Assembly (NCBI GenBank): GCA_016700375.1
Contig: CP065016.1
Span: forward strand, 990,001 to 1,022,000
DNA: 32,000 bases
Direction of reading: 5' to 3'
Source of the DNA: Candidatus Saccharimonadota bacterium
GTDB lineage: Bacteria > Patescibacteriota > Saccharimonadia > Saccharimonadales > UBA4665
In this document: piece after piece, positions 2 through 22,038 of the stretch
Position numbering within the stretch: position 1 is the first letter of the stretch
Layout of the letters: every line of letters starts with the position of its first letter
Notes under the pieces: generated by a model
Told to the model about the DNA's origin: nothing
Databases searched by the model: none
Seen by the model: the letters and a program-made list of their open reading frames with translations, nothing else
Position numbers and translations under genes: made by a program

Positions 2-3000
2 TCCAGTGGCAATACCGCCGACCTTGGAAGCCTGCTCGATAACACCGACGCCCAGGCTATCTCTCGCACAGGCAACACTATTTCGATTACCGGTAGTGCA
101 AGCACGATTGACCTCAGCCCGTACCTGGACAATACCGACGCCCAAGCAATCTCAAGGACCGGTAATACCCTTAGCATTACAGGCAACGCCAGTACTGTCG
201 ACTTAGCCAGTTACCTGGATAACACAGACGCCCAGACACTTAGCCTCGCTGGCACAACGCTCACGGTATCTGGCGGTAACAGCATTGACCTTGCCCCCAT
301 AAACACCGACGCCCAGACACTTAGCCTCGCTGGCACAAACCTCTCGGTAAGCGGCGGTAACACAATCAATATTGCGAGCATAAATACCGATGTCCTGGCC
401 GGTCTCAGCTGCGCAACCAACCAAATTGCCAAGTGGAACGGTAGTGCCTGGGCGTGTGCCGCGGATGTGGACACCGTGCTCAATGAGGCTCAAGTGGATG
501 CCTACGCAAACAACAACGGCTACCTGACGAGCGAAGTCGACGGCAGTATTACAAACGAAATTCAATCTCTCTCGCTGGTTGCGGATGTCTTGAGTGTGTC
601 TGGCGGAAATTCCGTGAACCTCGCTTCCTACCTCGACAACACCGACGCACAGACTTTAAGCTGGAACAGTGGTGCTGCCATTTTAACTATTGCCGGAGGT
701 AATACGGCAAACCTAAGCAGCCTACTCGACAACACCGACGCACAAGCTATATCCAAAACAGGCAACACCTTGAGCATTACGGGTAATGCCAGTACCGTTG
801 ACCTGAGCGGCTACCTAGACAACACCGACACACTGGCAAGCCTGAGCTGTAGTAATGGCCAGGTCGCGCAGTGGAACGGCAGTGCCTGGGTGTGTGCGAA
901 TGCCGCGGTCGATACTGACCAGCAAACTCTGTCGCTTGCCAGCAATAATCTAAGTATATCTGGCGGCAATTCGGTTTCGCTCGCCAGCTACCTCGACAAC
1001 ACTGATGCCCAGGCCATCTCGAAAGCGGGTAACGTTCTTTCCATATCTGGTAATGCCAGCACCGTTGATCTTTCGGGCTACCTAGACAACACCGACAGTC
1101 AGGCCCTTTCACTTGGTGGCAACACGCTCTCTCTGGTAAATGGCGGTTCGGTTAACTTGGCAGCTTATCTCGACAACACCGATGTGCTTGCTGGCCTCAG
1201 CTGTTCCAATAACCAAATACCAAAATGGAACGGCAGCGCTTGGACATGTGCCGCCGACGTAGACACGGTGCTCAACGAAGCTCAAGTGGACGCGTACGCT
1301 AACAACAACGGCTACCTCACCAGCGAAGTCGACGGCAGCACGAGTAACGAGCTACAAACGCTTACCTGGAACAGCGGGACGCACATTTTGACTATTAGCA
1401 GCGGCAACACGGCTGACCTTGGAAGTCTGCTCGACAACACCGACGCCCAGGCCATCAGCAAGACGGGTAACACTCTGAGTATCACGGGTAACGCGAGCAC
1501 CGTGGACCTCGCGAGCTACCTCGATAACACAGACTCCCAGACACTTGGCCTCGCTGGTACAACACTTACGGTGTCGGGTGGCAACAGCATTGACCTCGCA
1601 CCTATCAACACCGACAGTCAAAACCTGAGCCTTACGGGGACTACCCTGAATATTTCAGGCGGAACGGGCGTAGATATTGCCAGTATAAACACGGATGTCT
1701 TGGCAGGCCTCAGCTGTAGCACAAACCAAATTGCCAAGTGGAACGGCAGCGCCTGGACCTGCGCGGCAGATGTCGATACGAACACTGATGCTCAAACTCT
1801 CTCGCTTGCCAGCAATAATCTCAGCATACTAAACGGCAACAGCGTTTCACTGGCTGGCTACCTCGACAACACCGATAGTCAAACGCTTAGCTACAACACC
1901 GGCACGCATGTACTGAGCATTTCTGGCGGTAACACACAAGACCTCAGCAATCTGCTAGACAACACCGACGCCCAGGCCATTTCGCGCACCGGCAACACGG
2001 TATCAATCACGGGTAACGCCAGTACCGTAGACCTTACACCGTACCTAGACAACACCGATGTTCTGGCGAGCCTGAGCTGCTCCAACACGCAAATTGCTAA
2101 ATGGAACGGCAGTGCTTGGGCCTGCGCGGCCGATGTTGACACCGTACTCACGGAAGGTCAGGTTGACACCTATGTCAGTAACAATGGCTACCTCACCAGC
2201 GAGGTCGATGGTTCAACATCAAACGAGCTGCAAGACCTGAACCTCAGCAGCAATATCCTCACCATAACCAGTCTTGGTAGCCCGACTAACATCGACCTTG
2301 CTGGATACCTTGATAACACCGATGCCCTGGCGGCTCTCAGCTGCGTAGACGGCAAGATTGTGAAGCGTGTTGCCGGGGTATGGGCCTGCGGCGACGACAC
2401 TGACACTGTGCTGAGCGAAGCCCAGGTCGATACCTATGTGAGTAACAATGGCTACCTCACGAGCGAAGTCGATGGCAGCACGACGAACGAGCTGCAAAAC
2501 GTATTTCAGGCTGTCGTCACGCCTGATGCGAACAATCCGGCTGCCGATAGCACTACCGATAGCCTGACGTTAGCAAATGGCAGTGGTGTGAACATTACGA
2601 GCAACGGCACAACCGATACTATCACCATCGCTGCAACACTTGGTACTTCAATCAGCAACGCGGAAATCGATGACGCAACTTTGACTTTTTCAAAACTCGC
2701 TGCCAATTCCTGCAACAACGGAGAAATCGTCAAGTTCAACGGCTCTGCCTGGGTCTGTGGTACCGACAGTGACACCACTCTTTCAGAGGCGGCAGTTGAA
2801 GCCTATATCTTTGATGCCGACAATACTGGTACGCTCAGCAGTGGGACACTTGCTCTTGGCAGCTTGAGCTACACCGGCACGCTCGGCGACGCAAATATAG
2901 CCGATGCGCTCACCATTAGTTCTGCCGGTTCGGTTGACGACGCCGCATTAAGCAGCAATGTCACAAAACTCGGGCAGACAATTGAGTCCGGCGAAATAAC

Positions 3001-4942
3001 GAACGGTACGATTACTGGTACAGACCTTGCCAGTGCCACAATCCAATTCAGCAACATCGCGCAAAACGGTTGCTCAAGTAACCAAATCATGAAGTGGAAC
3101 GGTAGCGCTTGGGCTTGTGCGGCAGACGCAACTGGGGGGTCTATAAATTCGTTTGAAACCTTTGCAGCCTCTTCAGGTACAAGTCCGGTCGCAGACAGTG
3201 CGACCGATACACTCACCCTTAGCGGAGGCAGCGGCGTCACTATTACCGGAGATGGTACCACCGATACCATTACGGTGGCAGCCACGCTCGGTACTAGCAT
3301 AGACTCTGCCGAAATAGTCGACGGCACTATTGTGAGTGCCGACATTGCAGACGGCACAATCGCTAACACTGACCTAGCAAATTCGAGCGTCACAGTTAGC
3401 GCCGGCACAGGGCTAACAGGCGGTGGCGCGGTATCGCTTGGTGGCACTATCACGCTCAACCTTGCGAACGACTTTGGTGCCAGCATAGACAGCAGTGAAA
3501 TCACCAACGGTACAATTGTGTTTGCCGATGTCGCGGCCAATGGCTGTCTGAACGGCGAAATCTTCAAATACAATGGCAGCGCGTGGATGTGTGGCAGCGA
3601 CTTAGGGCTGACCAGCGAAGTCGATGGCAGCACGACTAACGAGCTGCAAAACCTCTTCCTTACTATTGCGACGCCCGATGCTGGCAACCCTGCAGCCGAC
3701 TCTACTACCGATACATTGACATTTGCCAACGGTAGCGGTGTGAGCATTACCAGTAACGGTACAACCGACACTATTACCGTTGCTGCCACGCTCGGCACCG
3801 ACATAACGAGCAGCGAGATTGCAGACGGAACAATTGCTGCAATAGATCTGGGCAGTGATAGTGTTACGGGTATAAAAATTCTGGATGGCGCAGTGGCGCT
3901 GGCTAAGCTTGCGACCGATAGCGTGAATGGCACGAAGATTGTTGATGGCACGGTCGCCAACGCCGACCTTGCATTTTCGAATGTGACCGTCAGCGCTGGC
4001 ACGGGTCTGACTGGTGGTGGGGCAATAAATTTGGGCGGTACAGTGACGCTCAATTCCAGCATTGGCACCAGCGTCGAAACAGGCGAAATAACCGATGGCA
4101 CCATTGCGGCCGCAGACATAAGTCCAGACGTCCTCGACTTTACCGAATTCAAAGACAGTATGGCCCTTGACGCGACAACAACTATTGCGCTTGGTGCCAA
4201 TGCTTTCAACATCAATCTTGATAGCACGGGTGATTTCGTGGTGCAGGATGCAGGTATTGCTGTCCTGACAGTAAACGATAGCGGCACTCTACTCTTCAAA
4301 AACTCCGCCGACAATGCCAATGCGTTTGTTGTTCAAGATGCCGCAAACTTGCCTATGTTCACGGTTGATACTATCTCGAATACAGTTGAGGTTGGGACAC
4401 TCGTCGATGATGCAGCCGATGTACTGCTTGTACTCGACGGAGTAAGCGGCTCGGATCCAACAGGCATAGCTGGCAGTATATATTACAATATAACAAATAA
4501 TAAATTCCGGTGCTATCAGGGGACCGCATGGGTTGATTGTGTGCCTGCCGCCTATAACGAATACGCATTTGCGGCAGGTCTAGAGACGTGGACCAATATG
4601 CCCGCAGCGGAGACACAGTTCTTGAATACACCTATACGATTACAAGTAGATTTAACTCGTGCCAGTGAGTTTCGGTTCGGCATAAGTCGCATGGCGGGGG
4701 CAGTAACGGCAGGAGCCGATTGTCGCGTCCAATATGCTACGACCCAAACAGGCACGTATGCTAACTTAGACGGAGCTACCGGTCCAGAAGTGGATGTAAG
4801 CGGTACGGCTGAATTGAAAAGTTCAGCCTGGACAGCCGTAACGGGCGCTGCCAAGTCAGACGTATATCTTCGCATAATGTGCAAACAGGGTAACGGCGTA
4901 GATGACCCACAGTTTAGAAATGCCTACATTCAGGTCCGATAA
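2..4942 (+). CDS. Giant repetitive cell-surface protein, C-terminal 1,646 aa (5' end lies outside the window)
   Basis: Frame 2 is open from nt 2. Hand translation of nt 2-466 gives SSGNTADLGSLLDNTDAQAISRTGNTISITG... with no stop, so the GTG listed at 467 is internal. The body is built from reiterated modules: YLDNTD(A/S)Q..(I/L)S..GNTLSI(T/S)G strands, 9 copies of a Cys-pair motif (LSCSxxQIxKWNGSAWxCAxD) and 5 copies of (NGY)LTSEVDGSTxNELQ. A unique Cys-containing C-terminal domain spans nt ~4454-4942. No function can be assigned from sequence alone. Confidence 0.85.
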   Translation, partial: SSGNTADLGSLLDNTDAQAISRTGNTISITGSASTIDLSPYLDNTDAQAISRTGNTLSITGNASTVDLASYLDNTDAQTLSLAGTTLTVSGGNSIDLAPINTDAQTLSLAGTNLSVSGGNTINIASINTDVLAGLSCATNQIAKWNGSAWACAADVDTVLNEAQVDAYANNNGYLTSEVDGSITNEIQSLSLVADVLSVSGGNSVNLASYLDNTDAQTLSWNSGAAILTIAGGNTANLSSLLDNTDAQAISKTGNTLSITGNASTVDLSGYLDNTDTLASLSCSNGQVAQWNGSAWVCANAAVDTDQQTLSLASNNLSISGGNSVSLASYLDNTDAQAISKAGNVLSISGNASTVDLSGYLDNTDSQALSLGGNTLSLVNGGSVNLAAYLDNTDVLAGLSCSNNQIPKWNGSAWTCAADVDTVLNEAQVDAYANNNGYLTSEVDGSTSNELQTLTWNSGTHILTISSGNTADLGSLLDNTDAQAISKTGNTLSITGNASTVDLASYLDNTDSQTLGLAGTTLTVSGGNSIDLAPINTDSQNLSLTGTTLNISGGTGVDIASINTDVLAGLSCSTNQIAKWNGSAWTCAADVDTNTDAQTLSLASNNLSILNGNSVSLAGYLDNTDSQTLSYNTGTHVLSISGGNTQDLSNLLDNTDAQAISRTGNTVSITGNASTVDLTPYLDNTDVLASLSCSNTQIAKWNGSAWACAADVDTVLTEGQVDTYVSNNGYLTSEVDGSTSNELQDLNLSSNILTITSLGSPTNIDLAGYLDNTDALAALSCVDGKIVKRVAGVWACGDDTDTVLSEAQVDTYVSNNGYLTSEVDGSTTNELQNVFQAVVTPDANNPAADSTTDSLTLANGSGVNITSNGTTDTITIAATLGTSISNAEIDDATLTFSKLAANSCNNGEIVKFNGSAWVCGTDSDTTLSEAAVEAYIFDADNTGTLSSGTLALGSLSYTGTLGDANIADALTISSAGSVDDAALSSNVTKLGQTIESGEITNGTITGTDLASATIQFSNIAQNGCSSNQIMKWNGSAWACAADATGGSINSFETFAASSGTSPVADSATDTLTLSGGSGVTITGDGTTDTITVAATLGTSIDSAEIVDGTIVSADIADGTIANTDLANSSVTVSAGTGLTGGGAVSLGGTITLNLANDFGASIDSSEITNGTIVFADVAANGCLNGEIFKYNGSAWMCGSDLGLTSEVDGSTTNELQNLFLTIATPDAGNPAADSTTDTLTFANGSGVSITSNGTTDTITVAATLGTDITSSEIADGTIAAIDLGSDSVTGIKILDGAVALAKLATDSVNGTKIVDGTVANADLAFSNVTVSAGTGLTGGGAINLGGTVTLNSSIGTSVETGEITDGTIAAADISPDVLDFTEFKDSMALDATTTIALGANAFNINLDSTGDFVVQDAGIAVLTVNDSGTLLFKNSADNANAFVVQDAANLPMFTVDTISNTVEVGTLVDDAADVLLVLDGVSGSDPTGIAGSIYYNITNNKFRCYQGTAWVDCVPAAYNEYAFAAGLETWTNMPAAETQFLNTPIRLQVDLTRASEFRFGISRMAGAVTAGADCRVQYATTQTGTYANLDGATGPEVDVSGTAELKSSAWTAVTGAAKSDVYLRIMCKQGNGVDDPQFRNAYIQVR

Positions 4943-6029: not shown

Positions 6030-7130
6030 GGCTTAAGTCACATTTCGGGTTGCTGCTAATGCTTACTTTCAACTAAAACGGACAGGCTCGCTGTTCATAG
6101 TATCCTAAGGTTGCAAAACTAATTAGGAGAAAAACTATGAGAGCGAAACGCTGTCCGTTTTTTCATTGTACCAACGTAAAGAAGAATGGTATACGCCGTG
6201 GCTTACAACGCTATGTTTGTGAAGATTGCGGTGCATCATGGCAAAGTAAACCACGACCAGACAGACGTCTAAAAAAACTCTGGCATCAGTATGCATTTGA
6301 TGGCCGAACAGTCCGTGATCTCGCCCGTTCGCATAAGGTCGGTGAGACACGTATACGATCATGTCTCGCTGCATATGTGCCACCAGCTATTGTCCACAAG
6401 CCTCGTGTGGTTGCCGTCGTCATGGATGTCACCTACTTTGATGGCTGGGGTATGTTAGTCGTTATTGACCCTACTGCGAATACAGCCCTGGGCGAGAACA
6501 CTGTCCTCTACTATGCCGTTCTGGAGGGGACAGAGCGAACCAGGGATTATGAGGTCGCAACAGATACACTTGAGTCCTTAGGCTACTGCATCATCATGGC
6601 AACCATTGACGGGCGTAGAGGCGTGAAGACAATGCTAGAAGATCATGCCATACCTGTACAGTACTGTCAGTTTCATCAACTCATGGCTATGACCAGATGC
6701 CTCACTCGTCGACCCAGGCTTGCGCAGAACGTTGCACTGAGACACATAGCACTTACCCTCACGAGAACTGACATCACCACGTTTGCAGCTGCCTTGGCGG
6801 ATTGGTACGAACAGTACGGCTCATGGCTCAAAGAGCGAGATGACATAACAGGAAGATACGCTCATGAACGTACCAGGCGAGCCTACTTCAGCCTCGTCCG
6901 CAACCTGGACAATTTGTTTACCTACCAGCACGACTACATGCAAGCGTACCAACGAGATACTGGCAAGAACCCAGCCAATACCACCAACGCATTAGAAGGT
7001 AGATTTGGTGTCTGGAAAGACAGGCTAACCGCACACAGAGGAACCTCAAAACAGCGTACAATTACAATCCTCCGTAGTTTCTTCTCTGAGAGAACAGATT
7101 AACTGAGCCACCCGAAATGTGACTTAAGCC
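6030..7130 (+). mobile_element. Intact insertion sequence, IS1/IS1595-like (1,101 bp)
   Basis: Perfect 21-bp terminal inverted repeats: GGCTTAAGTCACATTTCGGGT at 6030-6050 and its reverse complement at 7110-7130. These are flanked by an 8-bp direct repeat ACAATTTC (6022-6029 and 7131-7138). A single transposase ORF lies inside. Confidence 0.9.
6137..7102 (+). CDS. DDE transposase with N-terminal zinc ribbon (IS1/IS1595-like)
   Basis: SD AGGAG lies upstream. The N-terminus CPFFHCTNVKKNGIRRGLQRYVCEDCGASW matches the CxxC...NG...QRYxCxxC zinc-ribbon pattern of IS1 InsA and IS1595-type transposases. Candidate catalytic residues are D in VVMDVTYF, D in ATIDGRRG and E in TNALEGRFGVWK (E-x6-K). Family placement between IS1 and IS1595 is not resolved. 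Confidence 0.8.
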   Translation: MRAKRCPFFHCTNVKKNGIRRGLQRYVCEDCGASWQSKPRPDRRLKKLWHQYAFDGRTVRDLARSHKVGETRIRSCLAAYVPPAIVHKPRVVAVVMDVTYFDGWGMLVVIDPTANTALGENTVLYYAVLEGTERTRDYEVATDTLESLGYCIIMATIDGRRGVKTMLEDHAIPVQYCQFHQLMAMTRCLTRRPRLAQNVALRHIALTLTRTDITTFAAALADWYEQYGSWLKERDDITGRYAHERTRRAYFSLVRNLDNLFTYQHDYMQAYQRDTGKNPANTTNALEGRFGVWKDRLTAHRGTSKQRTITILRSFFSERTD

Positions 7131-8657: not shown

Positions 8658-9977
8658 TTCTAGTTCTCAATGCTATGGCCTCATGACAAAATAATCCCCA
8701 CATCCTAAGCCGACACCCCAATCGTATAGTTCCACTCACCATGAAAGTCTTCTTGCCGCACGTTTAGTGCGGCGAGCTCTTTGTCAGATATCTTGATGCC
8801 TTTTTCATAGATATTCGTATCGGCTACGGCTGTGACTGTCAGCCCTGATGTGGTGGTTGTGCTGGAGATAAGTCGGATTATAGTTTCTAGACTAGTCAAT
8901 GGCTTCGCTCTCCAATTGATGGATATGTATGAGAAGAGCTTATGCTCTATGGCATTCCACTTGCTCGTAGCTGGAGGGTAATGCCTGATGGTAATCGGTA
9001 TACCTATCTCATCGACCAACTCCTGTAATTCCTTCTTCCACAACCTGTTCCGTGAACCATTACTCCCGCCACCGTCACAAGTGATCAGGAGACGCTTTGC
9101 ATTGGGATACAGTTTACGACCATGTTCCTTCCACCACCGTCGGATACTTTCAACAGCAAAGGCTGAGGTATCGGCACTGGTGCCGACATTCACGAACCCG
9201 GTGTTTGTGAGTCGATCATAGATGCCGTACGGCACCGCCTTGCCGTCGGCGAGAGATGGAAAGTCGTAGACATTGACGACTTCTGCGCTACCTTTTGGCT
9301 GCCATTCCCGGCCATTGTTCTTGAAGTTGCCGAGGAGTTCTTTTTTCTTACAATCAACTGAGATAACAGGGTCGCCGGTTGCTAGAAAGTCTTTGATGGT
9401 AGTATTGATCAATTGAAACTGACCGTCCCGGTCAGGGTGTGAAACACCCTCAACGTTCTTCTTATTTGCCTGTAGGGAGAAGCCTTTTGCTTTGAGGATA
9501 CGGCCAATTGTACGGTAGCTGACTGCATGACCGGCTTTGTTGAGAGTGCTCTCAAGCCTACTGAGTGATTTGGTAGTCCACTGTATTGGGCTCATTGGAT
9601 CCCCCTTGGGATCGAGTAGTGCTTCAAGATCAGTTTCCAGGGTTGGGTCAGTATCCGTCAGTGTCTTTCTGCCGCCACCAGGTAGACGGATACGGTCAAG
9701 GAGTGGTGGGGCTTTACTGTCAGCTATCCCTCTGGAGACCGTCTCACGATCTACGCTGGCAACCCTGGCAACCTGTGAGATACCACCGAGCCCTAGCTTA
9801 CGAGCTTCTGTCCCGAGATATATACGCCATTGGCGTTCATTGAGAACAGGGCGTAGTAGTTCATATTGGTTTTCTTGGGTGATCGTATTTGTTTCTGTCA
9901 TACCTAACAGTATGGCAGATTGAGGCTATGTTGTGGTGATTATTTTGTCAGGAGGCCTATAGCATGAAGAACTAGAA
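8658..9977 (-). mobile_element. ISAzo13-family insertion sequence (about 1.3 kb)
   Basis: Imperfect ~47-bp terminal inverted repeats: 8658 ttctagttctcaatgctatggcctcatgacaaaataatc... versus the reverse complement of 9931-9977, ttctagttcttcatgctataggcctcctgacaaaataatc... An intact transposase lies inside. The outer boundaries could extend a few bp (cttacatt / cttcacatt). No clear target duplication was seen. Confidence 0.8.
8705..9901 (-). CDS. ISAzo13-family DDE transposase
   Basis: The 398-aa ORF carries hallmark blocks of the ISAzo13 / Rhodopirellula-type DDE transposase: LPGGGRK, PIQWTTKS, HPDRDGQF, ISVDCKKKELLGNFKNNGREW, AVPYGIYD, LITCDGGGSNGSR, YPPATSKWNAIEHKLFS and GEWNYTI. Confidence 0.9.
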   Translation of the reverse strand: MTETNTITQENQYELLRPVLNERQWRIYLGTEARKLGLGGISQVARVASVDRETVSRGIADSKAPPLLDRIRLPGGGRKTLTDTDPTLETDLEALLDPKGDPMSPIQWTTKSLSRLESTLNKAGHAVSYRTIGRILKAKGFSLQANKKNVEGVSHPDRDGQFQLINTTIKDFLATGDPVISVDCKKKELLGNFKNNGREWQPKGSAEVVNVYDFPSLADGKAVPYGIYDRLTNTGFVNVGTSADTSAFAVESIRRWWKEHGRKLYPNAKRLLITCDGGGSNGSRNRLWKKELQELVDEIGIPITIRHYPPATSKWNAIEHKLFSYISINWRAKPLTSLETIIRLISSTTTTSGLTVTAVADTNIYEKGIKISDKELAALNVRQEDFHGEWNYTIGVSA

Positions 9978-10037: not shown

Positions 10038-10170
10038 CGGGGAGTGGCTTGAGTCCGGTAGCGTGAGATCCGCCAGTGGCGGACCGCAAGGGAGTCCACT
10101 CTTGAAAGCTGTGCTTTCAAAGATGTGGCGACGGGGTCGCCGAAAGTGACCGCGGTTTGGTTCTACCGCG
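10038..10170 (+). repeat. tRNA-derived three-hairpin module, copy A (pseudo 5' half of tRNA-Pro plus hp1-hp2-hp3)
   Basis: CGGGGAGTGGCttgAGTCCGGTAGCGt matches 23 of 27 nt of the acceptor/D-arm of tRNA-Pro(UGG), which lies 174 nt downstream. It is followed by hp1 GATCCGCC-agt-GGCGGACC (10067-10085), GCAAG, hp2 TTGAAAGC-tgt-GCTTTCAA, hp3 GGTCGC-cgaaa-GTGACC, and a final hairpin CGCGGT-n8-ACCGCG. Confidence 0.75.
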
Positions 10171-10288: not shown

Positions 10289-10327
10289 TAAGAAAATACC
10301 TCAGCAGAGCTGGGGTGTTTTCTTATG
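10289..10327 (+). terminator. Intrinsic terminator-like hairpin after tRNA-Pro(UGG)
   Basis: ataAGAAAAtaCCTCAGCagaGCTGGGGtgTTTTCTTat has a GC core stem extended by A-tract/U-tract pairing. Confidence 0.7.
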
Positions 10328-10417
10328 TCAGTGAGATGTGGTGCGAGCTTGCGCGCAGGTTCGTGGACGAGGAACGGAGCAAAAAACGAAAGTTTACTTT
10401 TGTTTTTAGCGAGTACC

Positions 10418-10456
10418 GCAGGGAAGAGGGCGAAGCCCGATAATCCTGTCCCCTCG
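10418..10456 (+). repeat. Degenerate copy of the tRNA-Pro(UGG) T-arm/acceptor 3' strand with a hairpin inserted in the T-loop
   Basis: GCAGG-gaagaGGGCgaaGCCCgatAAT-CCTGT-CCCCTCG compares with the tRNA GCAGG-TTCAAAT-CCTGT-CTCCCCG. Confidence 0.65.
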
Positions 10457-10520
10457 TGGGATACTACGCCGCATCTTCCCTCATGCAATACAGGTGTTAT
10501 TTACGGCTTTTCACCCAGGG

Positions 10521-10624: not shown

Positions 10625-10661
10625 TACAAAAGACTCGGCACGTGCCGAGTCTTTTGTATGG
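10622..10661 (+). terminator. Perfect 40-nt palindromic terminator-like hairpin after tRNA-Pro(CGG)
   Basis: CCATACAAAAGACTCGGCAC|GTGCCGAGTCTTTTGTATGG overlaps the encoded CCA. Confidence 0.75.
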
Positions 10662-10780
10662 CATAGCCGGGTTTGGACCCACGACCAGAGATTCGCGCAG
10701 CAAAGATCGTAGGTCGTGAAGGTCGCGTAGCGGAGAAAGGAAACGGAAGCTTGCTCACGTCCCTTTCGGAGTGGAGGAGC

Positions 10781-10805
10781 GCAGCGATAATCCTGCCACC
10801 CCAAC
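10781..10805 (+). repeat. Degenerate copy of a tRNA-Pro T-arm plus the tRNA-Pro(CGG) acceptor 3' strand
   Basis: GCAGcgatAATCCTGC-CACCCCaac. The acceptor strand CACCCC matches the adjacent CGG tRNA. The AATCCTG T-loop/stem matches the UGG tRNA. Confidence 0.55.
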
Positions 10806-10871
10806 TACGCTAGTGCTTATTGCAAAATTCCCCATGCACTGTAGTATGAAGCATATAACACGGAGGGTACT

Positions 10872-15702: not shown

Positions 15703-16056
15703 TTGGGTGACGCGCCTGAAAAATGCGACGGTGGCGGCGATGAAGAGACTAGCTTTAGTCTGACTGACGATGGCGTGAACGGTTGGACACTGAACGGCGC
15801 TACGTGTACTGGGGCTGAGATAACTCGTGAAGGCAGTTCGGTAACCATGGAAGTCGTGCCGGGTGCGGATGTGAAGTGTACATTCGTAAACCAAAAGAAC
15901 ACCATTCCGCAAGTGCTCGGCGCAGTTGACCCGCCAAAGCTAGAAAATACCGGCGGTAGTGTGTGGGTGGCGGTGAGTATGAGTCTGACAGTTATGGGGC
16001 TAGCCATTCTGACTGCGTTAAGCGACCGACGTCGTAACCAAACGATGGCCGCGTAG
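15703..16056 (+). pseudogene. C-terminal remnant of a sortase-anchored surface protein (LENTG sorting signal)
   Basis: It ends with PPKLENTGG, a hydrophobic stretch (SVWVAVSMSLTVMGLAILTAL) and a basic tail (SDRRRNQ), which is a classical cell-wall sorting signal. No signal peptide is present. The strong SD GAGGAGG (15659-15665) serves an ATG at 15677 in a different frame that stops after 28 codons. The gene is therefore probably frameshifted or truncated. Confidence 0.45.
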
Positions 16057-16100
16057 TCACCCCAGACGAAATAAACAGAGAAGAAATAGCATTCCCAAGT

Positions 16101-16126
16101 AAAAAAGCCGATTTTTCGGCTTTTTT
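16101..16126. terminator. Bidirectional intrinsic terminator
   Basis: AAAAAAGCCGAtttttCGGCTTTTTT. Confidence 0.75.
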
Positions 16127-16213
16127 ACGTATAAAACGGCATGTAAAAAGCTATTTGAGTGTGCTGTTTCACGTAAGATTTTTCGCATGATTGAAATTTT
16201 GTCATATTTCGAC

Positions 16214-16219
16214 TATAAT
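16214..16219 (+). promoter_or_regulatory. -10 element (TATAAT) for tRNA-His
   Basis: TATAAT lies 14 nt upstream of G-1. The leader cACCTCTGTT is shared with the tRNA-Pro(CGG) promoter. Confidence 0.55.
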
Positions 16220-16233
16220 CACCTCTGTTTTAT

Positions 16234-16311
16234 GGCGGATGTAGCTCAGTTGGTTAGAGCGCCAGTTTGTGGCACTGGAGGCCGTGGGTTCAAGCCCCAT
16301 CATTCGCCCCA
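16234..16311 (+). tRNA. tRNA-His (anticodon GUG) with genome-encoded G-1 and CCA
   Basis: G-1 precedes the GCGGATG/CATTCGC acceptor. There is a CCAGT-TTGTGGC-ACTGG anticodon arm, a GTGGG-TTCAAGC-CCCAT T-arm and C73 opposite G-1. Confidence 0.9.
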
Positions 16312-16493
16312 AGATAAAGCCCCTGCGAAAGCGGGGGTTTTATCTTGGCGGCGTGGTGGCTTGAACACACGCCCAAGGCCGTGGGTGAGACCCGCCAGTG
16401 GCGGGTCGCAAGACAATCTTCTCTTGAAAGCTACGCTTTCAAAGATGAAGTTGTGGGGTCGCCGAAGGTGACCAAGCCCCATCATTCGCCCCA
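16312..16493 (+). repeat. tRNA-His-linked unit 1 (182 bp): terminator hairpin + three-hairpin module + copy of the tRNA-His 3' end
   Basis: The terminator is AAGATAAAGCCCCTGCgaaaGCGGGGGTTTTATCTT. The module runs 16347-16472, with hp1 GACCCGCC-agt-GGCGGGTC, hp2 TTGAAAGC-tac-GCTTTCAA and hp3 GGTCGCC-gaa-GGTGACC. This is followed by an exact copy of CAAGCCCCATCATTCGCCCCA (16473-16493 matches 16291-16311). Confidence 0.85.
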
Positions 16494-16847
16494 AGATAAA
16501 GCCCCTGCGAAAGCGGGGGTTTTATCTTGGCGGCGTGGCGGCTTGAACACACGCCCAAGGCCGTGGGTGAGACCCGCCAGTGGCGGGTCGCAAGACAATC
16601 TTCTCTTGAAAGCTATGCTTTCACGCATTTCGCACTTTGAGCTCATGTGCATTTTCTCCTTGAAGCACGGAAGGAGCCGTACTAGGGTACGGCGAGTGAG
16701 TACTGGAAAGGAAAAATGTGCAGGAGTCAAAGAAGCAAGCGGTGCAACCAGCTTTGCTGGTTGGCAGGCTGGCTGGTGTGAAATACGTGGCTTTCAAAGA
16801 TGAAGTTGTGGGGTCGCCGAAGGTGACCAAGCCCCATTATTCGCTCC
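16494..16847 (+). repeat. tRNA-His-linked unit 2 (unit 1 sequence interrupted by a 166-bp MITE), ending in a degenerate tRNA-His 3' copy
   Basis: Near-identical to unit 1 apart from the insertion at 16624-16789. It ends in CAAGCCCCATtATTCGCtCC (16828-16847), followed by a third, degenerate terminator hairpin. Confidence 0.85.
16624..16789. mobile_element. MITE-like insertion (166 bp) with imperfect TIRs and a 7-bp target duplication
   Basis: The termini are CGCATTTCGCAC and, at the other end, the reverse complement of CGTATTTCACAC (10 of 12 match). It is flanked by the direct repeat GCTTTCA (16617-16623 and 16790-16796). Unit 1 provides the uninterrupted empty site. Confidence 0.75.
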
Positions 16848-16933
16848 TGTAAAGCCCCTGCGAAAGCGGGGACTTTATCTTGGGAAAAGATGGGCCGCGT
16901 AAGGTATCAACATATACTGCGGAGGTGTAGTTT

Positions 16934-17914
16934 TTAGTGTCCAACGGGCTTGTCATCGGTGAAAGTTTCGCGGTGTCTATATAGGTCGTAGGCTTTGTGG
17001 TCGGCGGGTAGCGGCGGCTGAGGGGTAATGCTACGTGGCCACAGGCGATGAAATCGCACACTTGCGAGCTCTGCTCCAAGCAAAAATACCTGTGCTTGCA
17101 GGTAGAGCCAAAACAATATAGCAAGTACCACTGCAAACTGGGCCGTTAGGCCAGTCTGCGATTTCAACTGGTTGGCAATAATATAGCTACCGAGCGTCTG
17201 CAGAACGAGGAACCCTACGGCGGCAAAAAGTGCACCGTACACATTTACCACAGGATGCCGTCGCGCCGATGACCCAAATGTATACACCCCCCAAAACACA
17301 CTAAAGAGCGCAATGAACCCGCCCGTGCCTAGCAACATGCGTGCCCATAGCTCATGCTCTGCTGCCGTGGTATACCCGATGAGTGTGGCTGCGGCAATGA
17401 ACCCTACTCCGGCAAAAGCGATTATCCCAAAGCTCTTGAACGTTGAGTTAGGGAAGCCGGCTCTGCGGTTTCGCGGTACGGACCATACGTGGTTGAGGGC
17501 GTGTTGCACTGCGTGTGCTACGCCTTTGGTGCCGTACAGTGCAATCAGTAAGCCCAGGAAAACGGCTAGGCCACTTTTGCTTGGAGTTTTGATACTGTCT
17601 GCAAGGGTATTGCCTATGGCCGGAAAATAGCTCGTAGCGTTACGCAAAAAAGTTTCACGAAGCGTTGGGTCATTTTGGGATAATATTTGCACAATGCCGG
17701 TGCCGACTATAAGGAGTGGGAATATAGATAAAAACCCATAGTAGGCAATAAGAGTGGCCTGGTAGCCAGCTTCATCATCACTATGTTTTTTGAGTACGGC
17801 GTAGGGAAACGAGAACAAAGATTTTTGCTGAAAGTGGTCAAGCCAGTCTATTTTTCGTTCTATGAAATTTCTTTTTTTCACCGCGGATGCCATGGTTACA
17901 GAGTACAACTTCAC
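16934..17914 (-). CDS. YihY/BrkB-family inner-membrane protein
   Basis: A six-helix membrane protein with family-typical blocks YYGFLSIFPLLIV and LFWLYLQAQVFLLGAE. The start may be the internal ATG at 17893 (MASAVKK). Confidence 0.75.
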   Translation of the reverse strand: MKLYSVTMASAVKKRNFIERKIDWLDHFQQKSLFSFPYAVLKKHSDDEAGYQATLIAYYGFLSIFPLLIVGTGIVQILSQNDPTLRETFLRNATSYFPAIGNTLADSIKTPSKSGLAVFLGLLIALYGTKGVAHAVQHALNHVWSVPRNRRAGFPNSTFKSFGIIAFAGVGFIAAATLIGYTTAAEHELWARMLLGTGGFIALFSVFWGVYTFGSSARRHPVVNVYGALFAAVGFLVLQTLGSYIIANQLKSQTGLTAQFAVVLAILFWLYLQAQVFLLGAELASVRFHRLWPRSITPQPPLPADHKAYDLYRHRETFTDDKPVGH

Positions 17915-17943
17915 TTGGGATTATCAAAATGAAGAATCAATTG

Positions 17944-18020
17944 TGGCGCCCCGGGCAGGACTCGAACCTGCGACCTTAGGCTTAGAAGTCCTCTGCTCTA
18001 TCCAGCTGAGCTACCAGGGC
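17944..18020 (-). tRNA. tRNA-Arg (anticodon UCU), CCA encoded
   Basis: The reverse complement folds as a GCCCTGG/CCGGGGC acceptor, GCTC/GAGC D-stem, CTTCTAA anticodon loop and GCAGG-TTCGAGT-CCTGC T-arm. The anticodon stem is atypical: only three Watson-Crick pairs, flanked by G:A and A:G. Confidence 0.75.
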
Positions 18021-18115
18021 ATACAAGCGCCACTTGAGAGTATAGCGAAATCATGTAGAAAGTTAAAACCCAGTTGGCTAGAATAGATGCCGCATACGTC
18101 TTTTACTCAAAGCTT

Positions 18116-18139
18116 CCCAACTAAGCTACCAGGGAGCGC
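18116..18139 (-). pseudogene. Fragment resembling the 5' acceptor/D-arm of the tRNA-Arg gene
   Basis: The minus strand reads GCGCTCCCTGGTAGCTTAGTTGGG, compared with the tRNA 5' end GCCCTGGTAGCTCAGCTGGATAG. It lies ~95 nt upstream in the same orientation, and no complete cloverleaf follows. Confidence 0.55.
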
Positions 18140-18198
18140 TGCACTTCTAATAGCCTTCACATTTCGAATATATGAATTAGATATACTATACTAATATT

Positions 18199-18861
18199 AT
18201 GGTAAACAAAAAATCAAAAGCTTTATCGCTGAGGCGGCAGGGTTATTCCTATGTACTAATACATGAAAAGACAGGCGTTCCGTTAAGCACAATGAGCTAT
18301 TGGTTTCGGAATATGCAGTTCACGCCAAATGCTCAGGTGCGGGAAAGGATGCAAAATGGCTCAAAAAGAGCTGGATTAGTTCGTCGCAGACAAAGGATTG
18401 CAGATACAGCCGCACAAATAGGAAGAGGCATCACAGATATAGGCACATTGACGGAAAGGGATCTTTGGATGCTGGGTCTCGGGTTGTATATTGGGGAAGG
18501 AGCTAAAACTACTGAACAAGTAAGAGTAGCAAATTCAGACCCCGAGGTCATACGTTTGATAATGGCCTGGTTGCGTGGGCTTGGTGTTCCAGACAAAAAT
18601 ATAAATTTGGCTATACACATTTATCCCGATACTAGCCCGGAGCTTAGTAAGGACTTCTGGCTGAAGACAACTGGCCTATCTGAGAGCAATTTTGGCTGGG
18701 TTAGTATAGATAAGCGGGAAAATAAAAGCCGAAAGGCTGCCGGGAAACTACCATATGGCACTGCCCACATTATTTTGCGCGCAAGAGGGGAGCAGAAATA
18801 CGGAGTGCAGTTTTTTCGACGTCTAAAAGGATGGATGCAAGGAGTCTATAATCAGGTATAA
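18199..18861 (+). CDS. Free-standing LAGLIDADG-like (single-motif) homing-endonuclease-like protein with N-terminal HTH
   Basis: The N-terminal HTH-like segment is RRQGYSYVLIHEKTGVPLSTMSYWF. The central block DLWMLGLGLYIGEGAK fits the LAGLIDADG dodecapeptide, with an acidic residue in the GEG position. TATACT lies 6 nt before the ATG. The assignment rests on the motif only. Confidence 0.5.
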   Translation: MVNKKSKALSLRRQGYSYVLIHEKTGVPLSTMSYWFRNMQFTPNAQVRERMQNGSKRAGLVRRRQRIADTAAQIGRGITDIGTLTERDLWMLGLGLYIGEGAKTTEQVRVANSDPEVIRLIMAWLRGLGVPDKNINLAIHIYPDTSPELSKDFWLKTTGLSESNFGWVSIDKRENKSRKAAGKLPYGTAHIILRARGEQKYGVQFFRRLKGWMQGVYNQV

Positions 18862-18871
18862 TGAGAAACAA

Positions 18872-18946
18872 GCGGGTGTCGTATAACGGCTATTATAGGG
18901 GCTTTCCAAGCCCGGGACGGGGGTTCGACTCCCCCCACCCGCACCA
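18872..18946 (+). tRNA. tRNA-Gly (anticodon UCC), CCA encoded
   Basis: GCGGGTG/CACCCGC acceptor, TTTCCAA anticodon loop on a GGGC/GCCC stem, GGGGG-TTCGACT-CCCCC T-arm. The D-stem is short (3 bp). The discriminator is A rather than the U recalled for B. subtilis tRNA-Gly. Confidence 0.8.
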
Positions 18947-19100
18947 TGCAAAAGGCCTTTCCGAAAGGAAAGGTTTTTTGCATGGTTCTGGGCTGGGTGA
19001 GGCGAACGCGAGCGCCAGTGGCGCTCAGCCGCCCTTGCCCTGCGACCATGGGAGCAGGGTTTCACCGAAGGTGAAAGGTCGACTCCCCCCACCCGCACCA
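18947..19100 (+). repeat. tRNA-Gly-linked unit 1 (154 bp): terminator hairpin + divergent three-hairpin module + exact copy of the tRNA-Gly 3' end
   Basis: The terminator hairpin is CCATGCAAAAGGCCTTTCCgaaaGGAAAGGTTTTTTGCATGG. It is followed by GGGTGAG, hp1 GAGCGCC-agt-GGCGCTC, hp2' CCCTGC-n10-GCAGGG, hp3 TTTCACC-gaa-GGTGAAA, and then GGTCGACTCCCCCCACCCGCACCA (the tRNA reads GGTTCGACTCCCCCCACCCGCACCA). Confidence 0.85.
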
Positions 19101-19248
19101 TGCAAAAGGCCTTTCCGAAAGGAAAGGTTTTTTGCATGGTTCTGGGCTGGGTGAGGCGAACGCGAGCGCCAGTGGCGCTCAGCCGCCCTTGCCCTGCGAC
19201 CATGGGAGCAGGGTTTCACCGAAGGTGAAAGGTCGACTCCCCCCACCA
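19101..19248 (+). repeat. tRNA-Gly-linked unit 2, identical by eye to unit 1 and truncated within the acceptor copy
   Basis: Identical by eye to unit 1 over its whole length. It ends ...GGTCGACTCCCCCCACC followed by unrelated sequence (aaatatatg). Confidence 0.85.
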
Positions 19249-19502
19249 AATATATGAGGGGCTCGCCACATTCTGCGGTCCCGCTTCTGCGTGTGGTTAG
19301 GCATAGCCTAACCGGCAGAGAGCCTTGCGGTTTGCCGCTGGCAAACTTCACCCTCAACGGCTCGTATTCGGAATAAATCCGAATACGGCCTACTCCCCCT
19401 GAAGCTCGGACGAACGCCTCGTAACCGGTCAATAAGGTCCTACCTTTGTTTAAAATGTTGTACCAGTAACATATTTTGTATAAATTATGATATAATATAC
19501 CT

Positions 19503-20099
19503 ATGACACCGCAGAAAAGGCGTTTTGGGTTTACCACGAAAGCAGCACTGTATATCCTGACCATGGGCATATTGCTTTGCGCATCTGTTTACCCGCTTGC
19601 GTTGCGTGAGTATGACAAACAGTTTAAGGCCTATGCTGCAGCCCTGCCTGACTATACAAAAATAACTCCACCGGTCCCGTTTGCCATTGGTCGACCAATC
19701 AAGATAGAAGTTCCTAGTGTTGGAATCAGCCTACCGGTGGTAGACGGCTCATACGATACTGTTTCGAGAACCTGGACACTTCATAACGACAAAGTTCAGT
19801 TTGACACAGCATCAAAGTTGGCAAATTCACGCGAGGGCAATACTTTTATATACGGTCATGCCACCTCGTGGGTCTTTGGCCCGCTACTAGGAATTCAGCC
19901 CGGTGCTGAAGCTATCATAACGACAGACAAAGGATTTGTTTTTGTATATAAACTGGTCAGTCACGAGGTGGTTGACCCAACAAATGTCGGCGTTCTGAAC
20001 TACAGCGGACCTCCGCGGCTCATGCTACAAACTTGCACTGGCCCAACGCTCAGCGAATTCCGCCAGCTTTTTTACTTTACCTACAGCGGACGCAAGTAA
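19503..20099 (+). CDS. Sortase-family transpeptidase
   Basis: There is an N-terminal TM anchor. The catalytic-type motifs are FIYGH (His), MLQTCTG (TLxTC-type Cys) and a downstream Arg (SEFRQ). TGATATAAT lies 6 nt before the ATG, so the gene is probably leaderless. Confidence 0.75.
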   Translation: MTPQKRRFGFTTKAALYILTMGILLCASVYPLALREYDKQFKAYAAALPDYTKITPPVPFAIGRPIKIEVPSVGISLPVVDGSYDTVSRTWTLHNDKVQFDTASKLANSREGNTFIYGHATSWVFGPLLGIQPGAEAIITTDKGFVFVYKLVSHEVVDPTNVGVLNYSGPPRLMLQTCTGPTLSEFRQLFYFTYSGRK

Positions 20100-20169: not shown

Positions 20170-21693
20170 CTACAAATCTTGAAATACTTCTATACGAGCG
20201 CCAAGGCTATTTAGGCGTTCGGCCAAGTCTTCGTAGCCGCGCTGAATGGTGTATATGTTGCGTAGTGTCGAAACGCCATCCGCAGCGAGCATACCTATGA
20301 GCAGGAGGCTGGCTGGACGAAGGGCGGGCGGGCAAAATACGTCTGCGCGGGTGAACTTGGTTGGGCCGGTTATGTAAACGCGATGCGGGTCAGCCAGCTC
20401 CACCGTTGCACCGATTTTTGTGACCTCTGTGTAGTAAATGGCGCGGTTTTCATACATCCAGTCATGAATGAGTGTGCGACCTTTGGTGACGGCGCACATA
20501 GGAACAAAGTAGGGCAAGTTGTCGGTGTTTATGCCGGGGTAGGGGAGTGAATGAATTTTATCTATGAGTGCGCGTAGTTCGCCGTTGTGTTTTTGGATGT
20601 GAAGATTAACCAGCTCGGTTTTGCCATTTGTAGCATGGTATCGCTCGGTTATATCGTATCTCAGGCCCATTTTTTTGAGCTTTAGGAGCTCAAGTGTTAC
20701 GAACGCTATCGGCACGCGTTCAATGGTGATTTCCGAGTTTGTGGTCACGGCTGCAGCTATGAAGAACATGGCTTCTATAGGGTCTTCGGCTGGTGCGTAA
20801 ACTACATTTTTCTTGATGTTTTTGACGCCACGAACGCGCAGAGTACTTGTCCCTACGCCGTCTATTTTGACACCAAGCTTCTGTAGGAAAAAGCACACAT
20901 CTTGCACCATGTAATTTGCGCTGGCAAACTCTATGGTGGTTTCCTCTTCGCGCCCAGCGGCAGCCATGAGGGCGTTTTCAGTAACGGTATCACCCATTTC
21001 GTACAGCGCAAACCTGCCAGCGGGCCTTGGCTTCACGGATACTTGGTAGTGGCCGCTGGTTGCTTTAACGTCGAGGCCAAATTCTTGCAGGGCAAAGAGG
21101 TGTGGCTCCACCGTGCGTTCGCCCAACTTGCAACCCCCCGCATAGGGGATTTTAAACTCTTTATGCTCATGCATGAGCGAGCCCATCATCATTATTACCG
21201 TGCGGGTTTTTCGGGCAGCCTCTTTGTTCATGTTGCCCAGATTTAGTTTGGCGGGCCGGCGTAGCTCCAGGTCGCTCCCGTTTGTCCACTTGGCCTGCAC
21301 TCCAATGCTTTCCAGCACTTCGAGTATCCGGAACACTTCCTCGATACGAGGGAAATTTACAAACTTAGTTGTACCATGGTTTAGCAGCGCAGCGCACAGG
21401 AGGCCAACTGCTGCATTTTTGCTGGTTTTGAGTTGAATGGAGCCATGGAGTTCGTGCCCACCTGCTATGCGTAGATTAACCGAACCACTACCCAAGGAAA
21501 TTATTTGTTTATTGAGTGCTTCGCTCAGTCGTCCGAGTGTTTCTAGGCTGAGGTTTTGCCGCCCCTTCTCTATTCTGTTGATGGCAGATTGGCTCGTACC
21601 AAGCCGCTTAGCGAGTTCAGTCTGAGTCATGCCACGTTCTTGGCGCACACGCGCCACAAAATCACCAATTCGTTCGTTTGTTTGCGTTGTCAT
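20170..21693 (-). CDS. murA: XRE-family HTH domain fused to UDP-N-acetylglucosamine 1-carboxyvinyltransferase (MurA)
   Basis: Residues ~8-68 (IGDFVARVRQERGMTQTELAKRLGTSQSAINRIEKGRQNLSLETLGRLSEAL) form a Cro/C1-type HTH. The remaining ~435 aa is collinear with MurA: SKNAAVGLLCAALL, the active-site loop YAGGCKLGERTVEPH compared with E. coli PGGCTIGARPVDLH, and the C-terminal RGYEDLAERLNSLGARI. Confidence 0.85.
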   Translation of the reverse strand: MTTQTNERIGDFVARVRQERGMTQTELAKRLGTSQSAINRIEKGRQNLSLETLGRLSEALNKQIISLGSGSVNLRIAGGHELHGSIQLKTSKNAAVGLLCAALLNHGTTKFVNFPRIEEVFRILEVLESIGVQAKWTNGSDLELRRPAKLNLGNMNKEAARKTRTVIMMMGSLMHEHKEFKIPYAGGCKLGERTVEPHLFALQEFGLDVKATSGHYQVSVKPRPAGRFALYEMGDTVTENALMAAAGREEETTIEFASANYMVQDVCFFLQKLGVKIDGVGTSTLRVRGVKNIKKNVVYAPAEDPIEAMFFIAAAVTTNSEITIERVPIAFVTLELLKLKKMGLRYDITERYHATNGKTELVNLHIQKHNGELRALIDKIHSLPYPGINTDNLPYFVPMCAVTKGRTLIHDWMYENRAIYYTEVTKIGATVELADPHRVYITGPTKFTRADVFCPPALRPASLLLIGMLAADGVSTLRNIYTIQRGYEDLAERLNSLGARIEVFQDL

Positions 21694-21766
21694 GGAGGCT
21701 TATTATATCACTAGTGGTATATTACACTCAATTCCGACAAGCAATCAAGCAATGGGCAAAGCGAAA

Positions 21767-21859
21767 GACTTGCCAGGGGCGAGTCGCAAGGCAACCTTCC
21801 GGGCAAGCTATGCTTGCCGCAGTGAAGTTGCGGGGTCGCAGGATGCGACAAGGTCCTCC
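21767..21859 (+). repeat. Orphan copy of the three-hairpin module (no adjacent tRNA)
   Basis: hp1 GACTTGCC-agg-GGCGAGTC, then GCAAG, hp2 GGCAAGC-tat-GCTTGCC, GTGAAGTTGCGGG, hp3 GTCGCA-gga-TGCGAC, and CAAGGTCCTCC. The terminal GACAAGGTCCTCC is repeated at 21948-21960. Confidence 0.75.
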
Positions 21860-22038
21860 ATTTTGTGTCAGCGAAGCGACGGAGCCGACAGGCGAGCTTT
21901 AGGGCAGGAGGAGAGCTTATGCGGATTCATTCCGAATAAGCGAGGAGGACAAGGTCCTCCTAAACAGTTCCGCAGACAAAATTACTATATGCTGCTCATT
22001 CGCTACGGGTTACACTATAGGTAGCAATAAGGGGTTAC

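Follow-up and report, generated by a model that had tools for sequence, protein, structure and literature searches.

What kind of DNA has been perfectly duplicated behind the tRNA-Gly gene of a Candidatus Saccharimonadota bacterium, and how did it come to be there? We analyzed 32,000 nucleotides (nt) of this genome (NCBI GenBank assembly GCA_016700375.1, contig CP065016.1, positions 990,001 to 1,022,000 of the forward strand), a stretch that is referred to here as the window and in which positions are counted from its first nucleotide. Each 154-bp unit of the duplication contains a divergent copy of an apparently undescribed element of ~89 nt that folds into three hairpins and is associated with tRNA genes in Saccharibacteria. 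On balance, we lean toward the reading that this is a non-autonomous, site-specific insertion element and that the Gly unit holds a degenerate copy of it, which was duplicated by crossover or slippage.

The tandem array behind tRNA-Gly

Tandem Repeats Finder identifies positions 18925 to 19247 as a tandem repeat with a period of 154, 2.1 copies, 100% matches, and no indels, and a repeat search of the window finds the copies at 18925 to 19078 and 19079 to 19232 to be 100% identical, which bears out the perfect duplication described in an initial annotation of this DNA. The intact tRNA-Gly(UCC) gene is located at 18872 to 18946 on the plus strand, as are all parts of the array (ARAGORN; Rfam tRNA model, 54.7 bits), and its final 22 nt (18925 to 18946) are the first copy of a direct repeat. 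Unit 1 begins directly after the CCA with a 36-nt terminator palindrome (18947 to 18982; inverted repeat I6 and predicted fold), which has a 16-bp stem, a GAAA loop, and a T-run and in which CCA..TGG carries the inverted repeat into the tRNA acceptor. The same segment also scores as a terminator-like site on the minus strand, and one pair of its stem is found in G:C, A.C, and A:T states among assemblies, which is a compensatory pattern. The left flank of the element (18983 to 18994) consists of TGG and a degenerate copy, in antisense, of the 3' strand of the acceptor, as seen from inverted repeat I6 and from alignment to antisense tRNA positions 75 to 63. The element copy itself, of a divergent subtype, extends from 18995 to 19076, based on covariance models, motif counts, and a related copy at another locus (L024). 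It contains GGGTGAG (18995 to 19001), a first hairpin, hp1, GAGCGCC-AGT-GGCGCTC (19010 to 19026), a CCCTGC/GCAGGG hairpin (19038 to 19059) that is substituted for the second hairpin of the family, hp2, and a third hairpin, hp3, TTTCACC-GAA-GGTGAAA (19060 to 19076), which is followed by GG.

The second copy of the direct repeat (19079 to 19100) is identical to 18925 to 18946 and contains the remainder of the T-loop, the 3' strands of the T-stem and the acceptor, and the CCA. Unit 2 (19101 to 19232) is identical to unit 1 at a distance of 154 nt, with its terminator at 19101 to 19136, its left flank at 19137 to 19148, and its element at 19149 to 19230 (GGGTGAG at 19149 to 19155), again followed by GG. 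The third copy of the direct repeat has only 15 nt, TCGACTCCCCCCACC (19233 to 19247; repeat search), so that the second unit does break off within the acceptor copy, ending after TCGACTCCCCCCACC at 19247, as had been noticed earlier. The Gly unit is a composite of a terminator palindrome, a degenerate element copy, and the displaced 3' end of tRNA-Gly. There is no gene in the 132 nt between the tRNA-end direct repeats, and no integrase or cargo remnant is found at the Gly locus.

The number of units at this locus is polymorphic. An ortholog that is 95 to 96% identical, which is a species-level value (L010), has one Gly unit, as do six contigs that encode exactly identical flanking proteins (L219 to L222 and L225, each with a gap of 488 bp between the flanking genes, and L224). 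An independent assembly that also encodes these proteins (L223) has at least two units, which differ at one base, with GAA or GTA as the hp3 loop, the latter being a variant that is present at the Gly locus in the population. In the window, the gap from a 220-aa open reading frame (ORF) to the sortase gene is 642 bp, which is 154 bp above the gap of the one-unit contigs. In the one-unit locus, 132 nt are enclosed by two repeats, one of 22 nt and one of 15 nt, and the single unit of the orthologs ends in the same shortened 15-nt tRNA-end copy as the third repeat copy of the window. Comparison of these assemblies indicates that the duplication is a recent copy-number variant, which agrees with the very recent event proposed in the initial annotation. 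Homologous units do occur at tRNA-Gly in related genomes, contrary to one way in which that proposal might have failed.

The array probably arose when the tRNA-end direct repeats around the unit mispaired and one event, either an unequal crossover or slippage in replication, joined the 15-nt repeats TCGACTCCCCCCACC and converted a one-unit locus into a two-unit array. A crossover inside the shared 15 nt would leave a full-length middle copy and a shortened last copy, exactly as observed. It is improbable, in our judgment, that the second unit is an assembly artifact and that the true locus has one unit. Although most independent assemblies of the locus have one unit, and several contigs break within the repeat, a perfect tandem repeat is usually collapsed, not expanded, in short-read assembly, the units of L223 differ at one base and so are not a simple graph loop, and the array has exactly the structure that a biological unequal crossover would give.

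A structured element family at tRNA genes

The ~89-nt element contains, in order, GGGUGAG, hp1, CGCAAGG, hp2, CGGGG, and hp3. The hp1 hairpin has 7 to 8 bp, an AGU loop, and an invariant top, GCC-AGU-GGC; CGCAAGG forms a GNRA-like junction between hp1 and hp2; hp2, of ~18 bp, has small bulges and varies at its tip; and hp3 has 6 bp, a conserved G.U pair, and a GNA triloop (GAA). The ends of the element, GGGTGAG and GGTGAS, are direct rather than inverted. When 37 aligned sequences are fitted to this fold, 96.1% of cells are paired and changes on both sides are found at 21 of 32 pairs. None of 500 shuffles matched the observed pairing and covariation, slid controls pair at 32 to 47%, and RNAalifold finds compensatory changes at 18 of 28 pairs. 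The combinations G.U and U.G occur 74 times versus 7 times for A.C and C.A, which identifies the tRNA-sense strand as the strand that folds.

Rfam 15 has no match to the element, either at gathering thresholds in the window and 11 metagenome loci or at E values of up to 10 in positions 15900 to 19600; what it returns from the window and the metagenome loci is tRNAs, one RNase P, and noise. No description of the element was found in full-text searches on tRNA introns, T-loop insertions, small RNAs, repeats, or MITEs (miniature transposable elements with inverted repeats) of Saccharibacteria and Patescibacteria. Two covariance models, R1 and R2, were built here to represent the family.

A scan of species-representative genomes with a 23-base pattern gave 82 loci, of which ~38, from ~35 species, are Saccharibacteria or Saccharimonadales loci with a highly similar ~89-nt block; the remaining matches are chance occurrences in GC-rich genomes. 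At least 120 metagenome contigs were found with the 5' half of the motif, and R1, run on 100 of them, detects 131 copies. An intact tRNA gene lies within 200 nt of 85 of these copies, on the same strand in 84 of the 85, and the adjacent tRNAs represent 28 anticodon types, while 28 of the 131 copies are internal to a contig and have no tRNA within 200 nt. Of the tRNA-adjacent copies, 50 are downstream of the tRNA and 34 upstream, and two layouts recur. The downstream layout consists of the intact tRNA, a CCA-to-TGG terminator palindrome, a decayed antisense tRNA 3' half, a tight turn, sense positions ~42 to 53, the element, positions 55 to 76 with the CCA, and a second terminator. In the upstream layout, a promoter is followed by tRNA positions 1 to 53, the element, positions 55 to 63, an inverted copy of those positions, a promoter-like -10 box, and the intact tRNA; upstream copies lack the acceptor 3' strand and the CCA in the examples read. 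Other junction sites are the anticodon loop of tRNA-Pro(GGG), the D-arms of tRNA-Gly(GCC) and tRNA-Pro(UGG), the antisense side of tRNA-Phe, and a non-tRNA hairpin.

Larger variants of the element are also found, in which hp2 is replaced by GGCCGGA(A)G..GAGGC modules that may include a kink-turn-like internal loop (L096, 1164 to 1330; L117, 6400 to 6570; L132, 11256 to 11400; L105, 721 to 900; and L122, L125, and L130). Some of them have an additional hairpin within hp3, and variants form tandem arrays with ~45-nt spacers away from tRNAs in L098, L105, and L106.

The Gly units appear to belong to this family as divergent members. GGGTGAG..CCAGTGG occurs four times in the window, twice at tRNA-His and twice at tRNA-Gly, versus an expectation of 0 from 100 shuffles, and the Gly and His units both have GGGTGAG, a hairpin topped GCC-AGT-GGC, and the hairpin CCGAAGGTGA. 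The shared design of the two loci that had been proposed from the sequence thus reflects homology, since both contain the conserved element. R1 matches each Gly unit with 24.6 bits (19004 to 19075 and 19158 to 19229, plus strand; E = 5e-4 over the window) and R2 with 19.4 bits (E = 0.007), compared with 60 to 106 bits for canonical copies. In the Gly units, GGGTGAG is separated from hp1 by 8 additional nt (GCGAACGC); hp1, GAGCGCC-AGT-GGCGCTC, has the invariant top and is aligned by the covariance model. The CGCAAGG junction and the long hp2 are absent, and in their place are AGCCGCCCTTG and a different hairpin of 22 nt, a region that the model skips. The hp3 segment, GGG-TTTCACC-GAA-GGTGAAA, has an A:U pair at the usual G.U position, as do rare members of the family. 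The context is also that of the family, with an intact tRNA adjacent on the same strand and flanks copied from that tRNA. The same variant of the junction and hp2 is found in L024, after tRNA-Arg(CCG) of another species, and no further copies of this subtype turned up when the Gly core was compared with the metagenome loci by BLAST. Based on the retention of hp1, hp3, and GGGUGAG and the replacement of the junction and hp2, we conclude that the Gly units are divergent members of the family, and they are probably decaying.

Insertion junctions and the nature of the element

Exactly 2 nt are missing at the junction in all 54 cases in which both flanks match the neighboring tRNA uniquely. The missing dinucleotide is GT in 31 cases, TT in 16, and GC in 5, with GT or CA missing at other sites, and the element is always preceded by a G-run (GGG). 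The initial annotation had hp3 in the place of the TT of the T-loop at tRNA-Gly; across the family, 2 nt of the T-arm are indeed replaced, but by the whole three-hairpin block, of which hp3 is only the last helix. Copies of the element are also nested within one another. A second copy interrupts seven elements, and in six of these it lies exactly at the internal G-run (GGGG) before hp3; the nested copies in L155, L150, and L192 show the same loss of GT as at tRNA junctions. Elements that are 100% identical are found at tRNA-Lys in one species and at tRNA-Thr in another, copies at Glu, Gln, Arg, and Gly tRNAs are 93 to 97% identical, and at tRNA-Gln, copies that are 98% identical are located upstream of the gene in one species and downstream of it in another. 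We rejected the possibility that the inner CGGGG is a target-site duplication of the outer T-stem flank; as judged from the alignment, it fits tRNA-His by coincidence and fails for the Glu and Arg copies.

Clustering of the ORFs of ~160 element loci (up to ~15 kb each) gave no recurrent protein family, recombinase, or candidate Y1 transposase or repetitive extragenic palindromic (REP)-associated tyrosine transposase (RAYT). The clusters are local synteny groups, together with one spurious cluster that apparently translates tRNA genes. On viral contigs, 13 of 13 motif matches are chance occurrences in GC-rich coding sequence and none is a true copy of the element, so that a phage or plasmid source is unsupported. 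Taken together, the 2-nt junction, the nesting, the identical copies at unrelated loci, and the absence of a linked protein family at these loci point to an element that is non-autonomous and has moved from locus to locus and from one species to another.

We propose that the element lands next to GGG at the base of a hairpin, most often in the T-arm of a tRNA gene, and that it would replace exactly the next two nucleotides. Interruption of a single-copy tRNA gene should be lethal, and the copies that survive would therefore be those in a partial duplicate of a tRNA gene with the intact gene next to it. This duplicate lies either downstream, with the tRNA 3' end kept, or upstream, with the tRNA 5' part kept. 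We infer that the element is or was mobile via a single-stranded intermediate, either RNA or single-stranded DNA (ssDNA), that it is moved either by template switching or by a factor whose gene lies elsewhere, and that it has no required host function.

Several observations weigh against this proposal. No transposase, reverse transcriptase, or recombinase is tied to the element in the ~160 loci, and we know of no transposition chemistry that fits an exact loss of 2 nt of the target. Canonical copies that are nearly perfect in structure stand beside badly decayed tRNA flanks in L020, where the flanks have decayed to about half identity as judged by eye, and similarly in L068. An intact fold beside decayed flanks suggests either selection in place, which would mean a host function, or gene conversion between copies. 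Simple insertion does not explain why tRNA segments recur as tight inverted copies at the junctions; these copies look like the products of fold-back synthesis. The Gly units match R1 and R2 weakly, and their membership in the family rests partly on motif and context.

Of the known systems, REP sequences, bacterial interspersed mosaic elements (BIMEs), and palindrome-associated elements derived from IS200/IS605, which are mobilized by HUH (Y1) transposases or RAYTs, are similar in many respects. They are likewise short, non-coding, and multi-copy, with hairpins that show compensatory changes; they have no terminal inverted repeats and no target duplication, and they are strand specific; and they have a conserved short motif 5' of the first hairpin and insert beside a fixed short sequence. 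The two outer hairpins here share a GCC-NNN-GGY top, which is a further likeness to REP and BIME sequences. However, these systems insert without loss of target bases, whereas the Saccharibacteria element removes exactly 2 nt (54 of 54 cases), is located within partial copies of tRNA genes and not after stop codons, and has three hairpins and a GNRA-like junction; no RAYT or TnpA gene was found near any copy. Rickettsia palindromic elements, enterobacterial repetitive intergenic consensus (ERIC) sequences, and Correia-type repeats are also small structured repeats that spread in compact genomes and can land inside genes, but they have inverted-repeat symmetry or target duplications and no preference for tRNA genes, while the element described here is asymmetric and tied to tRNA hairpins. 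It is not a MITE, since its ends are direct rather than terminal inverted repeats and the target loses 2 nt instead of being duplicated. More tentatively, the element might represent a new class of site-specific mobile DNA, targeted to GGG at the foot of hairpins in tRNA genes or in itself, with an exact 2-nt swap, a single-stranded intermediate, an enzyme supplied by the host or encoded at an unlinked site, and a chemistry outside known pathways, or else a domesticated, functional RNA module that marks most tRNA loci of these reduced genomes.

A different explanation, to which we assign a lower but still appreciable probability, is that the host keeps the element at its tRNA loci as a non-coding RNA gene or module with a function, of which a tRNA-like minihelix would be a special case. 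Such a module might be co-transcribed with tRNAs and have a role in processing, stability, or protein binding, with the tRNA flanks as leftovers or helpers. Strong covariation and strand-specific G.U pairs are what is seen in RNA, the tRNA strand is shared by all but one of the 85 tRNA-adjacent copies, and promoter-like -10 boxes precede the upstream copies, but no promoter is visible between the tRNA terminator and the element in the downstream copies. The structure is kept next to heavily decayed flanks, and all three substitutions between the His copies of the window and of L037 spare it (G:C to G.U, a loop change, and U:A to U.G); on the other hand, at least one copy is decaying, that at 19265 to 19353, where two substitutions in the L220 assembly break pairs at the tip of hp2. 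The insertion sites vary, including the T-loop, the anticodon loop, the D-arm, a non-tRNA hairpin, and the inside of other copies, and the presence of identical copies at unrelated tRNAs in different species resembles spread rather than orthology.

The minihelix suggested by the initial annotation, an acceptor with an expanded T-arm, is not supported across the family. The minimum-free-energy fold of the Gly unit does close with an acceptor-like helix, but this helix is not conserved across the family. In 44 units, the left flank pairs with the 3' end of the unit at a mean of 8.2 of 12 positions (best of sliding offsets), which is no better than the best-of-window background. Copies upstream of the tRNA, 34 of the 85, lack an acceptor 3' strand and CCA in the examples read, and some copies interrupt an anticodon loop, a D-arm, or a non-tRNA hairpin instead of a T-loop. 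The segment that seemed able to pair with CACCC like an acceptor 5' strand is GGGUGAG, an invariant motif of the element, and its match to CACCC is a coincidence of the tRNA-Gly sequence. The Gly and His units do resemble tRNA-like structures (viral 3' ends, mascRNA, and the tRNA-like domain of tmRNA) in that they end in T-stem and acceptor 3' strands and CCA and can fold a closing helix with upstream sequence. Unlike in those structures, the tRNA part is a literal copy of the neighboring gene, is absent from a third of copies, and has no conserved pairing partner, and the conserved part is a non-tRNA block.

We give little credence to the view that the units are integrase scars, either attL/attR remnants of decayed islands or att-only elements, with the conserved block as an attP arm. 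Each unit stands between direct repeats of the tRNA 3' end (at tRNA-Gly, 18925 to 18946, 19079 to 19100, and 19233 to 19247), the tRNA is reconstituted, junctions are found in the T-loop and the anticodon loop, which are the classic integrase sublocations in tRNA genes, and a different terminator directly follows the CCA in each downstream unit. All but the last are features of integrative elements at tRNA genes, in which arrays are also possible. However, the units have only 130 to 180 bp, the repeats in the ~160 loci have neither an integrase nor cargo between them or next to them, and viral contigs have no true copy. Hairpin-preserving compensatory changes are unexpected for double-stranded protein-binding arms, the fold is conserved on one strand, conservative site-specific recombination would not remove 2 nt, and the mirror-image copies keep the tRNA 5' part.

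Least probable is a new type of tRNA intervening sequence, removed from or tolerated in functional tRNAs, since removal could not restore a tRNA that always lacks 2 nt of its T-arm or anticodon arm, nearly all other copies have a shortened tRNA part and an adjacent intact gene, half of the tRNA is absent from most copies, and no Rfam 15 intron or ribozyme model matches at E values of up to 10. The case for it is L037, from a close relative, in which a complete, element-interrupted tRNA-His stands behind its native promoter and no intact copy is visible on the contig; if this is the only tRNA-His gene of that genome, the insertion would be tolerated or removed. However, L037 (1 to 570, compared with 15841 to 16507 of the window) equals the window minus 16290 to 16375, which is the segment that recombination between two 11-nt repeats would delete, and only 35 nt of the contig follow.

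Further copies in the window and consequences for tRNA loci

The window contains at least seven copies of the element, as detected with R1 and R2. Two units lie at the tRNA-His locus (16235 to 16900). The canonical copy in tRNA-His unit 1 (16383 to 16472, plus strand; R1, 105.7 bits) is flanked by tRNA-His positions 44 to 53 on the left and 56 to 76 on the right, as determined by flank alignment, and Tandem Repeats Finder identifies the tRNA-His array (16291 to 16623) with a period of 182 and 98% matches. A second His copy (16565 to 16827, plus strand; R1, 37.4 and 30.6 bits for its two halves) is split by a 165-nt insertion (16626 to 16790), which lies in the tip of hp2 and is bounded by a repeated GCTTTCA, and this copy is followed by a diverged tRNA-His 3' end at 16828 to 16847. 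The copy upstream of tRNA-Pro(UGG) (10061 to 10150, plus strand; R1, 86.7 bits) is joined at the D-arm to a partial tRNA-Pro 5' copy and is followed by a decayed anticodon arm, as seen from the sequence and flank alignment. Starting ~160 bp from it is an ISAzo13-family DDE transposase gene (8705 to 9901, minus strand; Pfam E = 3.5e-131), and 6137 to 7102 is a second possible transposase-like ORF with no Pfam match.

A canonical copy in the opposite orientation abuts the Gly array (19265 to 19353, minus strand; R1, 61.5 bits, E = 4e-12; R2, 64.3 bits) and has an ortholog at 2307 to 2395 of L010. Its 5' flank (19354 to ~19425, minus strand) contains a conserved long hairpin and is homologous to sequence in L002 and to 21882 to 21948. 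The copy at 21761 to 21849 (plus strand; R1, 72 bits; homolog in L002) is of a subtype in which hp1 has an AGG loop and hp3 an AGGAT loop, and it adjoins an uninterrupted copy of its non-tRNA target hairpin, GGAGGAC-AAG-GTCCTCC. A conserved piece of ~65 nt, which consists in order of GAGCTTYAGGGSAGGAGGAGA, a 10-bp hairpin with a TTYAT loop, and GAGGAGG, accompanies three element copies (21850 to 21965; 19354 to 19425, minus strand; and L002, 3164 to 3233) and is also present uninterrupted at 21890 to 21960.

Some sites in the window resemble these units and lack the element. After each tRNA-Pro gene (10289 to 10480 and 10625 to 10810) are a terminator, ~110 to 130 purine-rich nt, and a decayed copy of the tRNA 3' end (GATAATCCTGTCCCC and GATAATCCTGCCACCCC), without the three-hairpin element; similar units are found in L074 and L065, and these may be a second cargo family. 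BLAST of the spacers after both tRNA-Pro genes and of the 165-nt His insert against the collected element loci found no relatives. A partial 5'-end copy of tRNA-Arg(UCU), with the acceptor strand and D-arm and no element, lies at 18117 to 18142 (minus strand), ~90 nt upstream of the intact gene. An 81-bp tandem repeat (2.1 copies, 80% matches) is found at 221 to 390, at the start of a 1,491-aa ORF (467 to 4942; overlap from 467).

The genes of the window near the array are ordinary chromosomal genes, encoding a sortase, a BrkB-family protein, a MurA-like enzyme, and serine hydroxymethyltransferase (SHMT). The array itself lies between the 220-aa ORF (18199 to 18861), directly upstream of tRNA-Gly, and the sortase gene downstream; the latter is not the endoribonuclease toxin gene that would follow type III toxin-antitoxin RNA repeats. 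The 220-aa ORF has no Pfam family above threshold; by eye, its LGLGLYIGEGAK stretch recalls LAGLIDADG homing endonucleases. The MurA-like enzyme, of the EPSP-synthase fold (20170 to 21693, minus strand), is fused at its N terminus to an XRE-type helix-turn-helix domain, an unusual combination.

For annotators, the element has practical consequences, since its copies break short-read assemblies at tRNA genes and the pseudo-tRNA fragments that it makes can mislead annotation; R1 and R2 would allow others to annotate it. The 2-nt replacement, the GGG target, the self-nesting, and the inverted tRNA copies are a precise signature with which to search for the enzyme, or the error in replication, that is responsible. 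As ultrasmall episymbionts, Saccharibacteria have genomes of ~1 Mb and are thought to carry little mobile DNA. An element that is present at three of the five tRNA genes in the window, and beside tRNAs of 28 anticodon types among the metagenome copies, would be a major overlooked shaper of their tRNA loci.

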